Source: Escherichia phage HK022. From it: a stretch of DNA of 40,751 bases. The notes under the pieces were generated by a model. The model had not been told where the DNA came from. It worked only from the letters and a program-made list of their open reading frames with translations, and searched no databases. The position numbers and the translations under genes were made by a program. This document shows, piece after piece, positions 13,751 through 29,857 of this stretch; within the stretch, counting starts at the first letter, position 1; each line of letters starts with the position of its first letter. The stretch lies in the sequence record NC_002166.1; one strand, given 5' to 3'.

Positions 13751-13972
13751 CTACTTATTCATGAATTGCTTCAGTTCAGTGGCAAGTTTTTCAAAAGGTG
13801 GATGGCTATACTGAGTAAGCTCTATAAGTAACTGGTTTTTATCTGAGTCAGGCAATCTGGCAAACAACAATCCAAATGCTAGCTTAAGAGCGGTAACCTC
13901 ATTTGCCACATCGGATACATCATTGCAATTAGTGGTTAGTTTTAGCCCGTCAATATGTCGAATCTGATTCAC
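13751..13972 (-). CDS. hypothetical protein (73 aa), opposite-strand moron between I and J
   Basis: GTG start at 13972 with AGGA 6 nt upstream; helical, mildly acidic protein; convergent with flanking tail genes. Confidence 0.45.
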   Translation of the reverse strand: MNQIRHIDGLKLTTNCNDVSDVANEVTALKLAFGLLFARLPDSDKNQLLIELTQYSHPPFEKLATELKQFMNK

Positions 13973-26079: not shown

Positions 26080-26291
26080 GAATATCTCCTTCGTTACCGA
26101 TTAATTCTTTCATCTGACGAATGAATTCTTCGTCTGACCAGTTATCTGTAAAACTCATTTCCTGCGATACCATGGAAGGTTGATAGCTGATTTCATCGCT
26201 TTATTTGCTTCAAGCCACATTTTTGAATCACCAATAAATCTGGCTATTACTGCTTTGTTCTGTGCAGCACGAAGCATCTGGTGATTGATGG

Positions 26292-26426
26292 CTATTTCAT
26301 TGCGCATAACGCCTCCAGTTGTTTCTTTGCTGCTCTGATTAATTGTTTAACTCGGCGTGATAATTCAGATTCGTGCGGGTAGAAAGCGGACATGACGCCG
26401 CTACCCGCGAGCTGAAAGTGCATCAT
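26292..26426 (-). CDS. cIII: CIII-like protein
   Basis: 44 aa from tandem ATGs at 26426/26423 with AAGGAG 6 nt upstream; central HESELSRRVKQLIRAAKK resembles the lambda CIII amphipathic core (PSESLLERITRKLRDGWKR). Confidence 0.5.
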   Translation of the reverse strand: MMHFQLAGSGVMSAFYPHESELSRRVKQLIRAAKKQLEALCAMK

Positions 26427-26492
26427 GGGTAACTCCTTATATTTGATTGCATAACGAAAACGCCTCGAGTGAAGCGTTATTGTTATGCATAT

Positions 26493-26516
26493 AAAAAGGC
26501 CCTCACATCGGAGGGC
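26493..26516 (-). terminator. rho-independent terminator upstream of cIII-like gene (tL1-like)
   Basis: GCCCTC-cgatgt-GAGGGCC hairpin followed by T5 on the minus strand. Confidence 0.5.
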
Positions 26517-26600
26517 AAAGAAGATTTCCAATAATCAGAACAAGTCGGCTCCTGTTTAGTTACGAGCGACATTGCTCCGTGTATTCACTCGTTGGAATGA

Positions 26601-27657
26601 GGCTTTGTTGAATAAATCAGATTTCGGGTAAGTCTCCCCCGTAGCGGGTTGTGTTTTCAGGCAATACGCACGCTTTCAGGCATACCTGCTTTCGTCATTT
26701 TGTTCAGCGCTCGTACCAGGGCCATAGCCTCTGCAACCTGACCATCGTAGTCACGCAGTGTCAGTGAACCCCCGAACAGCTGTTTTACCCGGTACATCGC
26801 CGTTTCCGCTATCGAGCGACGGTTGTAATCTGTTGTCCATTTCCACCGCGCATTACTCCCGGTCATTCGCTGATTAGCCACTGCACGGTTACGGTCTGCA
26901 TATTCACCGGGCCAGTAACCCGCACCTTTTCGGGGAGGGATAAGCGCGCTGATTTTCTTACGCCGCAGTTCATCGTGACATAGCCGGGTATCGTAAGCGC
27001 CATCGGCGGCGGCTGACCTGATTTTCCGGTGGGTTTGCCGGATTAACCCGGGGAAGGCCTCTGAGTCCGTAACGTTGTTCAGCGACAGGTCAGCGCAGAT
27101 GATTTCATGTGTTTTACTGTCAACGGCGAGATGCAGCTTACGCCAGATACGGCGGCGTTCCTGGCCATGCTTTTTGACTTTCCACTCGCCTTCACCGAAG
27201 ACCTTCAGCCCGGTGGAATCAATTACCAGGTGTGCGATTTCACCCCGGGTGGGCGTTTTGAAACTGACATTAACCGACTTTGCCCGCCTGCTGACACAGC
27301 TGTAATCCGGGCAGCGTAGCGGAACGTTCATCAGAGAAAAAATGGAATCAATAAAGCCCTGCGCAGCGCGCAGGGTCAGCCTGAATACGCGTTTAATGAC
27401 CAGCACAGTCGTGATGGCAAGGTCAGAATAGCGCTGAGGTCTGCCTCGTGAAGAAGGTGTTGCTGACTCATACCAGGCCTGAATAGCTTCATCATCCAGC
27501 CAGAAAGTTATGGAGCCACGGTTGATGAGGGCTTTATTGTAGGTGGGCCAGTTGGTGATTTTGAACTTTTGCTTTGCCACGGAACGGTCTGCGTTGTCGG
27601 GAAGATACGTGATCTGATCCTTCAACTCAGCAAAAGTTCGATTTATTCAACAAAGCC
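26601..27657 (-). mobile_element. IS903-like insertion sequence (IS5 family), 1057 bp
   Basis: Perfect 18-bp terminal inverted repeats GGCTTTGTTGAATAAATC (26601..26618 and 27640..27657); flanked by 9-bp direct repeat TTGGAATGA (26592..26600 and 27658..27666). Confidence 0.9.
26657..27580 (-). CDS. IS903-type transposase
   Basis: 307 aa from GTG at 27580 (track extends to a TTG at 27625); ends ...MTKAGMPESVRIA as in IS903 transposase. Confidence 0.85.
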   Translation of the reverse strand: MAKQKFKITNWPTYNKALINRGSITFWLDDEAIQAWYESATPSSRGRPQRYSDLAITTVLVIKRVFRLTLRAAQGFIDSIFSLMNVPLRCPDYSCVSRRAKSVNVSFKTPTRGEIAHLVIDSTGLKVFGEGEWKVKKHGQERRRIWRKLHLAVDSKTHEIICADLSLNNVTDSEAFPGLIRQTHRKIRSAAADGAYDTRLCHDELRRKKISALIPPRKGAGYWPGEYADRNRAVANQRMTGSNARWKWTTDYNRRSIAETAMYRVKQLFGGSLTLRDYDGQVAEAMALVRALNKMTKAGMPESVRIA

Positions 27658-27724
27658 TTGGAATGAATACACAGTGCAGTGTTTATTCTGTTGTTTGCGT
27701 GAAAATGAAACCCGCCTGAGCGGG

Positions 27725-28063
27725 TTATGACCACTTTTTGTTTGGGTTTCGCTGGTGAGCGTGATTAACAACTCTGTGCATTACATCCTCATATTTTTCA
27801 TCTTCAATTTTTTCGACATCGCGAGGAAATGGTGTTGCTAATGCTTTGTCAACTTTGTCCATTGGGTCTTCATTAATCTTATATTCAGGACCGTCATCTA
27901 TAGCATTAAATCCAGGTGTCACACCGTTTTTTAATGCATATGCTATCCTTTTTTCCCATCTCGCTATTCTCCTCCTGTCTCGAGATGTAAGACCTCTATC
28001 AGATACTTTTCTGTTTTGTCCGCTGTCAGGATTAACATAAATAGTCTTTTTCACCATAAGCAT
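27725..28063 (-). CDS. nun: Nun-like arginine-rich transcription termination factor (N-position protein)
   Basis: 112 aa from first ATG (track start 28069 is TTG); arginine-rich motif RKVSDRGLTSRDRRRIARWEKR; acidic centre; C-terminus ...NPNKKWS; no SD, as for N-like genes. Confidence 0.75.
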   Translation of the reverse strand: MLMVKKTIYVNPDSGQNRKVSDRGLTSRDRRRIARWEKRIAYALKNGVTPGFNAIDDGPEYKINEDPMDKVDKALATPFPRDVEKIEDEKYEDVMHRVVNHAHQRNPNKKWS

Positions 28064-28239
28064 ACCCAATAAGCACCGTACGGTAGTTTACTGTACAATT
28101 TTATTTTTTGGACTGCATGTATTTTGTTTCCTAATGGGTTTGAATCTTTGCAATAAATACTTCTATTTTTTCGAACGACTTCTATATCAAAAAGCTGCTT
28201 TGCTTTTTGTGACTAAAAGCAAAAAAGCCTTCTCGCTAA

Positions 28240-28310
28240 TGAGCAGCATTGCCGTTCATCCTGAACCCGCCGCGCTCCCGACGCATGGTTTAAAGACGCG
28301 CCGTTCGTCT
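28240..28310 (-). promoter_or_regulatory. putL-like cis-acting RNA element
   Basis: GC-rich segment immediately downstream of the predicted pL start, sharing sequence blocks with the element at 29460..29520. Confidence 0.5.
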
Positions 28311-28315
28311 ATGGG

Positions 28316-28344
28316 CTTATGATGTACTTAAAGTTCATTAATGT
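28316..28344 (-). promoter_or_regulatory. candidate pL promoter
   Basis: minus-strand TTGGTA (-35), 17-nt spacer, TATAAG (-10); flanked by operator-like repeats. Confidence 0.4.
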
Positions 28345-28421
28345 AAAGTACCAATAGTACATTTTATGGGTATAAAAAGCTCACTACATCATAAGTTAGT
28401 GAACTTTAAGGAAATTTATTT

Positions 28422-29129
28422 TTATCCGAATCGCTTGTAATCGATTGACTGCCTAATGAGGACTTTGGCTAGAATGTGAAGTTGCTCTTCTTCACCTTCT
28501 TCTATGTACCATCGATCATAAGCGGCATTGTCAGAGATGACGGCAAGCCTGTTCTTTTGCATTTGCAGGCGCTTAACGTGCATTGTTTTCCCGTATACAA
28601 ACACATAAATGCCATCGCCATCAAAACAGGTTATGGATACATCAACAAAGATCTCATCTCCCGGATTGATGGTTCCCTCCATGCTGTCACCGCGAACCGT
28701 GATGACTTTTACGCTTTCCTGTGGCCTTCCATTAAATAAAATTCTTGCCTGCTCGGTCGTATATTCAATTGCTCTTATCTTTTCTATAAATTCATTGGAA
28801 ACCATGGTTCCTGGCCCGGCGCTCGCCTGAACATCCAATACATCAACACGATAATAATCATTTGATCTTGATAGATGATTTACCGTGATACCGTCATCAT
28901 CAGCATAGCCATGCAGATATGCAGCAGTAGTTCCCAGCACCGAAGCCAGAGATTCCATCTTGTCTTTTCTTGGTATTGACTCCCCGTTGAACCATTTACT
29001 AATGGCTTTTGGTGTGACCTTAAGCCTGACAGCTAAATCAGCCTGCCTACCATGCAAAGGTAATCCCGCTTTATCACAGGCCAGCGCAAGCCTCTGCGAG
29101 AAAGTTTCACGCTCTTTCTGTTGAACCAT
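28422..29129 (-). CDS. cI: CI-type repressor (HTH + S24 LexA-like peptidase domain)
   Basis: 235 aa from ATG 29129; N-terminal HTH, Ala-Gly cleavage site (ASAGPG), catalytic Ser in GDSMEG and Lys in HVKRL; longer track ORF would overlap pR and cro. Confidence 0.85.
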   Translation of the reverse strand: MVQQKERETFSQRLALACDKAGLPLHGRQADLAVRLKVTPKAISKWFNGESIPRKDKMESLASVLGTTAAYLHGYADDDGITVNHLSRSNDYYRVDVLDVQASAGPGTMVSNEFIEKIRAIEYTTEQARILFNGRPQESVKVITVRGDSMEGTINPGDEIFVDVSITCFDGDGIYVFVYGKTMHVKRLQMQKNRLAVISDNAAYDRWYIEEGEEEQLHILAKVLIRQSIDYKRFG

Positions 29130-29136
29130 AAGTTCA
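29122..29136. promoter_or_regulatory. operator-like palindrome TGAACCATAAGTTCA (copy 1)
   Basis: 15-bp sequence with perfect TGAAC/GTTCA arms; centre overlaps the cI ATG. Confidence 0.45.
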
Positions 29137-29149
29137 ACTATATTAGGTA

Positions 29150-29178
29150 TTGACTGTACTATCAGTTCCGTCATAATA
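29150..29178 (+). promoter_or_regulatory. candidate pR promoter
   Basis: TTGACT (-35), 16-17 nt spacer, CATAAT/ATAATA (-10), 30 nt upstream of cro ATG. Confidence 0.55.
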
Positions 29179-29193
29179 TGAACCATAAGTTCA
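29179..29193. promoter_or_regulatory. operator-like palindrome TGAACCATAAGTTCA (copy 2)
   Basis: Identical 15-mer directly downstream of the pR -10 element. Confidence 0.45.
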
Positions 29194-29208
29194 CCACAGG
29201 AGAGAAGC

Positions 29209-29439
29209 ATGAACGAAGTTACGTTTGGAGAAGTTATCAAATCCGTTCGAGTTTCTGTTGTGGCTGATGTTTGTGGACTTACGCCAAAAGCCATCTATAA
29301 GTGGCTTGAGCGTGGTTCTCTGCCGCGTACCGAGTTCACTGGTGAAACCGAATATGCGGATAAGATCGCCAAGGCATCAGGCGGCAAGTACTCAGCAGCA
29401 CAGATTCGCCGTATCGGTAAACAGCAGTTTGTTATGTAA
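29209..29439 (+). CDS. cro: Cro-like repressor
   Basis: 76 aa; AGGAGA RBS; HTH (GLTPKAIYKWLERG); divergent from cI across the operator region. Confidence 0.7.
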   Translation: MNEVTFGEVIKSVRVSVVADVCGLTPKAIYKWLERGSLPRTEFTGETEYADKIAKASGGKYSAAQIRRIGKQQFVM

Positions 29440-29459
29440 TAAAAATGTACTTTTAGTAC

Positions 29460-29520
29460 CGAACGGCCCGGTATACGGTCGGGTGCCCGGCGTGGTCAAG
29501 GATGACTGTCAATGGTGCAC
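29460..29520 (+). promoter_or_regulatory. putR-like cis-acting RNA element
   Basis: GC-rich structured segment between cro and cII; shares CGAACGGC, GTCGGG, GCCCGGCG and GGTCAAGGATGACTGTCAATGGTGC-like blocks with 28240..28310. Confidence 0.5.
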
Positions 29521-29560
29521 GATAAAAACCCAAATTATTTACCTATGGAGATAGTAAGAA

Positions 29561-29857
29561 ATGACACAAACAAGTTACAGCAAGCCAACACAGCGAGAAA
29601 TTGATCGCGCTGAAACTGATTTACTCATCAACCTGTCAACGCTTACCCAGCGCGGTCTGGCAAAGATGATTGGCTGTCATGAATCGAAGATAAGCAGAAC
29701 GGACTGGAGATTTATTGCTTCGGTCTTGTGTGCTTTCGGAATGGCATCAGACATCAGTCCGATTAGCAGGGCTTTTAAGTATGCGCTTGATGAAATCACA
29801 AAGAAAAAATCCCCGGCCGCCACCGAGGATTTTAAGCAAATTGATATGCAATTCTGA
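29561..29857 (+). CDS. cII: CII transcriptional activator
   Basis: 98 aa; C-terminus [18 protein letters not shown] parallels lambda CII KKRPAATERSEQIQMEF; GGAGA RBS. Confidence 0.85.
29570..29583 (-). promoter_or_regulatory. candidate CII-binding site of a pRE-like promoter (TTGC-N6-TTGT)
   Basis: minus-strand TTGCTGTAACTTGT within the first codons of cII, same position as the lambda TTGC-N6-TTGC. Confidence 0.35.
29804..29828 (-). terminator. candidate terminator of an oop-like antisense RNA
   Basis: minus-strand CCTCGG-uggcgg-CCGGGG hairpin followed by ATTTTTT, inside the 3' end of cII. Confidence 0.35.

Follow-up and report, generated by a model that had tools for sequence, protein, structure and literature searches.

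Organisation of the immunity region

In the window, i.e., the whole stretch of 40,751 nucleotides that was analysed, the immunity region is laid out with cI, pL, putL, nun and then IS903 on one side, and with cro and putR on the other. Annotations from GenBank record X16093.1 and from the record of O276, a laboratory HK022/lambda hybrid, were transferred to the window by constant offsets, which we checked by alignment. The cI repressor gene, recognised as an open reading frame and by annotation, occupies 28422-29129 on the minus strand, and to its right lie cro (29209-29439) and cII. The promoter pL (28319-28347, minus strand), found both in the annotation and in a promoter scan, has the -35 element TTTACA (28342-28347) and the -10 element CATCAT (28319-28324) at a spacing of 17 nt and is overlapped by the oL operators. 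A preliminary description of this DNA, made from the raw sequence, had drawn attention to an open reading frame to the left of pL and cI, a position that is confirmed by the annotations of both X16093.1 and O276. This frame lies on the minus strand at 27725-28063 and is the subject of the analysis below.

The element putL (28241-28303, minus strand) is identified by annotation, by its two stem-loops, by its similarity to putR and by the literature, which describes it as a cis-acting antiterminator RNA that serves HK022 as an alternative to N and nut (PMC9378689). Its counterpart putR lies downstream of cro at approximately 29464-29520 on the plus strand, a position taken from the O276 annotation. 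The two sites are clearly related in sequence, and folding predicts two hairpins for each. The folding energies are no better than those of shuffled sequences (z = -0.87 for putL and -0.01 for putR), so the put assignment rests on annotation and literature. A scan of the whole window with Rfam gave no match, and no Rfam family detects put RNA. Downstream of putL, at 28188-28221, the GenBank record of 1989 marks an A/T-rich hairpin (GCTTTT...AAAAGC) as a 'putative nutL equivalent'. This hairpin bears no similarity to lambda boxB and sits just upstream of a remnant of an N gene (described below); later work has assigned antitermination to putL and not to this hairpin.

Two further elements concern the expression of the frame at 27725-28063. 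The O276 record places a nun-specific promoter at 28090-28118 on the minus strand (-35 at 28113-28118, -10 at 28090-28095), inside the N remnant. A sigma-70 consensus scan did not detect this annotated promoter, although the same scan found pL. Promoters of nun were reportedly described by King et al. 2000. At the other end, a terminator-like GC hairpin followed by a T-run (27709-27726, minus strand; 7-bp stem with 5 GC pairs, tail TCATTTTCAC) begins inside the nun stop codon; it is a predicted element, called from its match to the consensus.

Identity of the open reading frame and its translation start

The X16093.1 record is entitled 'Lambdoid phage HK022 nun gene and immunity region', and all of its 3500 bases align to 26123-29622 of the window with 2 mismatches (99.94% identity). 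Its 'nun gene product (AA 1-112)' (positions 1603-1941; CAA34221.1) maps exactly to 27725-28063, which holds 112 codons plus the stop. In a megablast comparison with phage records, the 1001 bases from 27500 to 28500 were 100% identical to both X16093.1 and O276. It is for 26123-29622 that near-identity to HK022 is shown; for the remainder of the window, the phage collection yielded only mosaic relatives (mEpX2, HK140 and mEp506), which match at 94-98% identity, with 59-74% coverage.

At the protein level, a search of all PDB chain sequences with the nun product returned two matches. One is chain N of 6ALG ('Transcription termination factor nun'), to which the product is identical at 109/109 residues (E=4.9e-72), and the other is chain B of 1HJI ('NUN-PROTEIN'), a peptide solved with lambda boxB RNA, to which its arginine-rich motif (ARM) is identical at 26/26 residues. 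PHROG 5632, 'Nun-like transcription termination factor', matches the product from one end to the other (E=2e-70). Searches of Pfam and NCBIfam with it gave no match; since neither Nun nor put is represented by a model in Pfam, NCBIfam or Rfam, we base the family assignment on PDB, GenBank and PHROG.

We consider it practically certain that the frame is nun of coliphage HK022, a lambda-superinfection-exclusion factor, and that the window is HK022 itself or a near-identical isolate. The gene is already known and well studied, and the main finding is thus not new: the frame is the archetype of its family, in its native genome. Research on nun, on the RNA that it targets, on the structure of Nun bound to polymerase and on the exclusion that it brings about goes back to 1987-1989. 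The preliminary description had proposed HK022 Nun for a frame with the motif RKVSDRGLTSRDRRRIARWEKR, an acidic centre and HQRNPNKKWS as its C-terminus. All three features are present in the minus-strand product, and the proposal is borne out by the 100% identity to both PDB chains and by the nun annotation of X16093.1. The ARM and the KKWS terminus, read from raw sequence, thus led to the right gene, which makes the locus useful as a positive control.

The deposited coding sequence may not begin at the true start. The minus-strand frame ending at 27725 extends over 27725-28069 (114 codons) when read from a TTG, and counts 112 codons from its first ATG at 28063; the in-frame candidate starts are TTG 28069, ATG 28063, ATG 28057 and GTG 28054. 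Homologs at approximately 65% identity, from Citrobacter and metagenomes, begin with MAKKT or MKKKT and align with the MVKKT that starts at ATG 28057. In addition, the numbering of the literature and of PDB counts 109 residues from Val, with W108 penultimate, as against the 112 codons of the deposited coding sequence. Judged from these alignments and the numbering, the true start is probably ATG 28057 and not ATG 28063. Most likely, nun comprises 110 codons, and the protein would lose its Met to give a mature form of 109 residues. The product of 112 residues given in the preliminary description thus agrees with the annotation of 1989 but is probably 2 codons too long.

The arginine-rich motif and the arrest tail

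The ARM region of the product, DRGLTSRDRRRIARWEKRIAYALKNG (27923-28000, minus strand), corresponds to the 1HJI_B peptide in complex with lambda boxB RNA. The segment that arrests RNA polymerase lies at the C-terminus (residues 87-109 in literature numbering; 27728-27796, minus strand) and was delimited from the cryo-EM literature and from conservation. The tail ends in ...RVVNHAHQRNPNKKWS and includes H98, H100, R102, K106, K107 and the penultimate W108. Both parts are strongly conserved: the ARM core RRR..R..K is invariant in 5/5 aligned homologs, and the tail RVVNHAHQRN..KKW is likewise invariant in aligned homologs, in each case down to 41% identity. The relatives at approximately 65% identity also keep both the ARM and the tail.

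The conserved tail coincides with what is visible in the structure of the protein on its target. In the cryo-EM transcription elongation complex, only the 23 Nun residues 87-109 are seen, and these carry all known determinants of arrest; W108 occupies a pocket to which beta' D329 contributes (PMC5386594). Kang et al. 2017 mutated R94, N97, H98, H100, R102, K106, K107 and W108, all of them in the tail (PMC5386594). The H98A, K106A/K107A and W108A proteins are defective at physiological Nun levels and have substantial activity at saturating concentration, with K106A/K107A and W108A keeping 66% to >70% of arrest activity in vitro under the latter condition (PMC5386594).

Mode of lambda exclusion according to the literature

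The identity of nun, its motifs and context, the lack of a lambda boxB and the presence of put are read here from sequence, while binding, arrest and exclusion are taken from the literature. In the published scheme, Nun, a protein of approximately 12 kDa, acts as a superinfection-exclusion factor, which the repressed prophage would produce. When lambda or lambda imm434 enters the cell, the arginine-rich helix near the N-terminus of Nun binds the boxB hairpin in the nutL and nutR RNA of that phage, where it competes with lambda N, and Nun becomes tethered to the polymerase on lambda DNA. The C-terminal 23 residues then thread into the active-site cleft, which puts them between the lid and rudder of beta', the hybrid of RNA and DNA and the duplex downstream, and translocation is blocked. 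Arrest is stimulated by NusA, B, E and G, and the arrested complex is removed by Mfd, so that early transcription of lambda terminates prematurely.

Published work on the identical protein gives this scheme its foundation. Exclusion of lambda and of lambda imm434 has been established to need nut and the Nus factors, arrest is stimulated by NusA, B, E and G plus boxA, and Mfd clears the arrested complexes (PMC5386594, PMC4124055). Termination proper consists in the release of the arrested polymerase, and this release depends on host Mfd (PMC5386594). The concentration of Nun in lysogens is estimated at approximately 100 nM, which is tuned to nut-bearing complexes only (PMC5386594, PMC4124055). 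The mechanism outlined in the preliminary description (Nun binds lambda boxB and arrests transcription, for which its C-terminal Lys-Lys-Trp is required) agrees with these studies, as does the exclusion of lambda by a lysogen that it expected (PMC5386594, PMC4124055).

HK022 itself remains unharmed because it lacks a lambda-type boxB, its own early transcripts being antiterminated by the cis-acting putL and putR RNAs and not by an N protein. In the whole 40751-base window, the lambda boxB GCCCTGAARAAGGGC has 0 matches with up to 2 mismatches, and a boxA-like octamer occurs once, at 13885 in a tail-gene region, which is chance level. Given the absence of boxB and the occurrence of boxA at chance level, the phage offers Nun no target of its own.

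Nun compared with N, and alternative readings

Nun and lambda N have much in common. Each is a small, basic and largely unstructured protein that recognises one and the same hairpin, lambda boxB, by an arginine-rich helix at its N-terminus. The gene of each lies just downstream of pL, and each protein relies on Nus factors. They differ in outcome, N bringing about antitermination and Nun arrest, and in the genome that they act on, since Nun works in trans on a rival phage and not on its own DNA. The resemblance in sequence ends beyond the N-terminal third: in a BLASTP comparison, Nun residues 19-75 alone, ARM included, align with lambda N (30% identity over 60 aa, pairwise E=3e-4), and the Nun tail ...NHAHQRNPNKKWS has no counterpart in N.

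That the frame is a chance one or a degraded pseudogene can be dismissed altogether, given that it is intact, that its product is identical to a protein that has been expressed, purified and structurally solved, and that its protein sequence is conserved across 20 clusters, Citrobacter included. Another reading, in view of the shared map position downstream of pL and the weak similarity of the ARM to the N-terminus of lambda N, would be a processive antiterminator of the N type that acts on the early transcription of HK022 itself, as N does in lambda. We regard this as extremely improbable and have rejected it. The product does not match the Pfam model of lambda N (N36, PF11438), and phrog_271 (N-like) is not among the three PHROG families that match it at E<=0.01. 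Its similarity to N is confined to residues 19-75, and the phi21-type N of mEp235 does not align with it anywhere. The outcome that the preliminary description had named as speaking against Nun, namely, N-type antiterminators as the best homologs, has thus not materialised. Moreover, no cognate boxA-boxB nut sites (no lambda boxB) were found after pL and pR in the window, which has the put RNAs instead. HK022 uses these (PMC9378689) and, according to the literature, has no need for a phage-encoded antiterminator, and nun mutants grow and lysogenize normally (PMC4124055).

A different possibility is that Nun has a second role besides the exclusion of lambda, in host or prophage transcription or directed at other nut-bearing elements, and that this explains its retention in prophages that encode N, including the Stx1a phages. 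In many phages, and probably also in a few hundred of the 5426 complete E. coli genomes, a nun homolog at 91-98% identity does lie directly after an intact N, and over-expression of Nun is toxic and leads to non-specific arrest of the host polymerase (PMC5386594, PMC4124055). However, the exclusion of lambda-type competitors accounts for the conservation equally well, and the sequence gives no pointer to another target. We consider a second role unlikely, though less so than an antiterminator of the N type, and retain the exclusion of lambda as the function of nun.

A remnant of N and the origin of the HK022 arrangement

The preliminary description had stated that the frame occupies the position of N. 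This is right as regards the map but incomplete, since the truncated 3' end of an N gene lies between putL and nun. The remnant (28072-28185, minus strand) comprises approximately 38 codons of a phi21-type N gene and was found by tblastn and by its match to the C-terminal end of phrog_271, 'anti-termination protein N-like' (E=2.1e-6). It has neither a start codon nor an ARM and encodes EVVRKNRSIYCKDSNPLGNKIHAVQKIKLYSKLPYGA. By tblastn, it is near-identical to amino acids 63-100 of the N protein of mEp235, and the part upstream of it is degraded and contains a stop. The mEp235 protein begins with MVTIVWKESKGTAKSRYKARRAELIAERR, which we take to be the N-terminus of the phi21 N type. In E. coli NZ_LR882493.1, PGAP annotates the equivalent stretch as a pseudogene 'missing N-terminus'. 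In the literature searched we found no prior mention of the remnant; it may already be described in Oberto 1989, Juhala 2000 or King 2000.

In several relatives, N is intact at this place. Unlike in HK022, nun follows directly after an intact N in mEp235, mEpX1, PA28 and Stx1a-converting phages, and a Nun-like gene does so in Hafnia phage Pocitis76; the loci examined were those of mEp235 (L003, 2518-3164), PA28 (L008, 1694-2339) and Pocitis76 (L009, 2240-2767). Of 5426 complete E. coli genomes, 337 match positions 27708-28310 of the window at least in part. An evenly sampled listing of these matches suggests that most of the 337 cover 27708-28183, i.e., nun plus the 3' end of N, and that the others have a short stretch only. 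The same evenly sampled matches suggest that complete E. coli genomes most often have the N-nun tandem. By contrast, the combination of putL, N remnant and nun was found only in HK022, in HK75, in the laboratory hybrid O276 and in 1 of the 5426 complete E. coli genomes, namely, NZ_LR882493.1 with its pseudogene.

The boundaries of these matches locate a recombination joint. Homology to the N-nun phages stops at approximately 28183, and matches to the putL module that lack nun start at approximately 28180, which places the joint between put and N-nun at approximately 28180-28183. One of the prophages with a putL module and no nun also has a truncated N. We infer from this layout that the loss of N in HK022 may go back to an exchange in which the put module took the place of nutL and of the 5' portion of N. 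More precisely, a pL-putL module may have supplanted nutL together with the first two-thirds of a phi21-type N, leaving the 38-codon remnant with the annotated nun promoter. Nun would then not have 'substituted' for N, contrary to what is occasionally stated (PMC9378689).

Relatives of Nun and of its C-terminal tail

A search of 5.8 billion proteins returned 20 Nun clusters, the largest of which has 556 member sequences on 860 contigs; the named entries come from E. coli and Citrobacter. Nun is a narrow enterobacterial prophage family. The homologs in mEp235, mEpX1, HK75, PA28, Stx1a-converting phages and E. coli and Citrobacter prophages resemble Nun of HK022 at 61-98% identity, with ARM and tail conserved. 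Several database relatives (P0011, P0012, P0016, P0017, P0019 and P0020) are truncated or seemingly frameshifted, and P0019 (89 aa, from E. coli) has neither ARM nor tail; nun, this suggests, decays in some prophages.

The tail also occurs on other proteins. Phage 434, which has a lambda-type N and nut, encodes directly after N a protein of 289 aa, gp48 (OL657226.1; locus L010, 2718-3587), whose last 14 residues, VNHAHQRNPNKKWS, are identical to those of Nun. In its record, the protein is annotated as 'Nun C-terminal peptide-containing protein'. It shares with Nun the arrest tail and the slot immediately downstream of N and differs in its unrelated head of approximately 275 aa, and it has no Pfam match. 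The family phrog_12139 matches the Nun tail (E=2.6e-4), and gp48 probably belongs to it. In the literature searched, no prior mention of this Nun-tail protein of phage 434 was found, which does not show it to be undescribed.

Hafnia phage Pocitis76 provides a second case. Its ORF43 (locus L009, 2501-2767) encodes 88 aa that are 41% identical to Nun and is preceded by an N gene that is presumably P22-like. The product begins with MDAQARRREKRKAKQEEWKKQNP, which matches the Pfam model N36 for the lambda N ARM (E=2.4e-9), and ends with MYRVVNHAHQRNRHKKW. ORF43 thus has the Nun arrest tail and the slot right after N but, unlike Nun, an ARM of the lambda N type, and we regard it as a putative natural head-swap variant of Nun. 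Taken at the level of sequence, these proteins suggest that the Nun arrest tail may be a module capable of fusion with various heads.

We put forward a joint proposal for these arrangements, tentatively and in the knowledge that it may well be wrong: nun would be an accessory exclusion gene that ancestrally lay just after N, and the Nun C-terminal peptide would be a portable module that jams RNA polymerase. If true, the slot after N holds exclusion factors in which one tail is combined with varied heads, namely, the ARM of Nun, the lambda N ARM in Pocitis76 and the head of 275 aa in phage 434. The N remnant, the N-nun tandem and the tail on other proteins are modest leads for the study of recombination in phages between heads that target RNA and a tail that arrests polymerase.

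Insertion of IS903 downstream of nun

IS903 (26601-27657, minus strand; 1057 bp) is separated from the downstream end of nun by 67 bp. It was identified by its transposase open reading frame, by its terminal inverted repeats and by the O276 annotation, and the HK022 record and O276 share the insertion. It is bordered by a 9-bp target duplication, TTGGAATGA, at 26592-26600 and 27658-27666, and homology to HK75 picks up again at 27658, right after the element. The flanks of IS903 (26569-26600 and 27658-27682) form a 22-nt inverted repeat with 82% complementarity, and the element may therefore have landed in a hairpin, possibly a terminator, that is intact in HK75.
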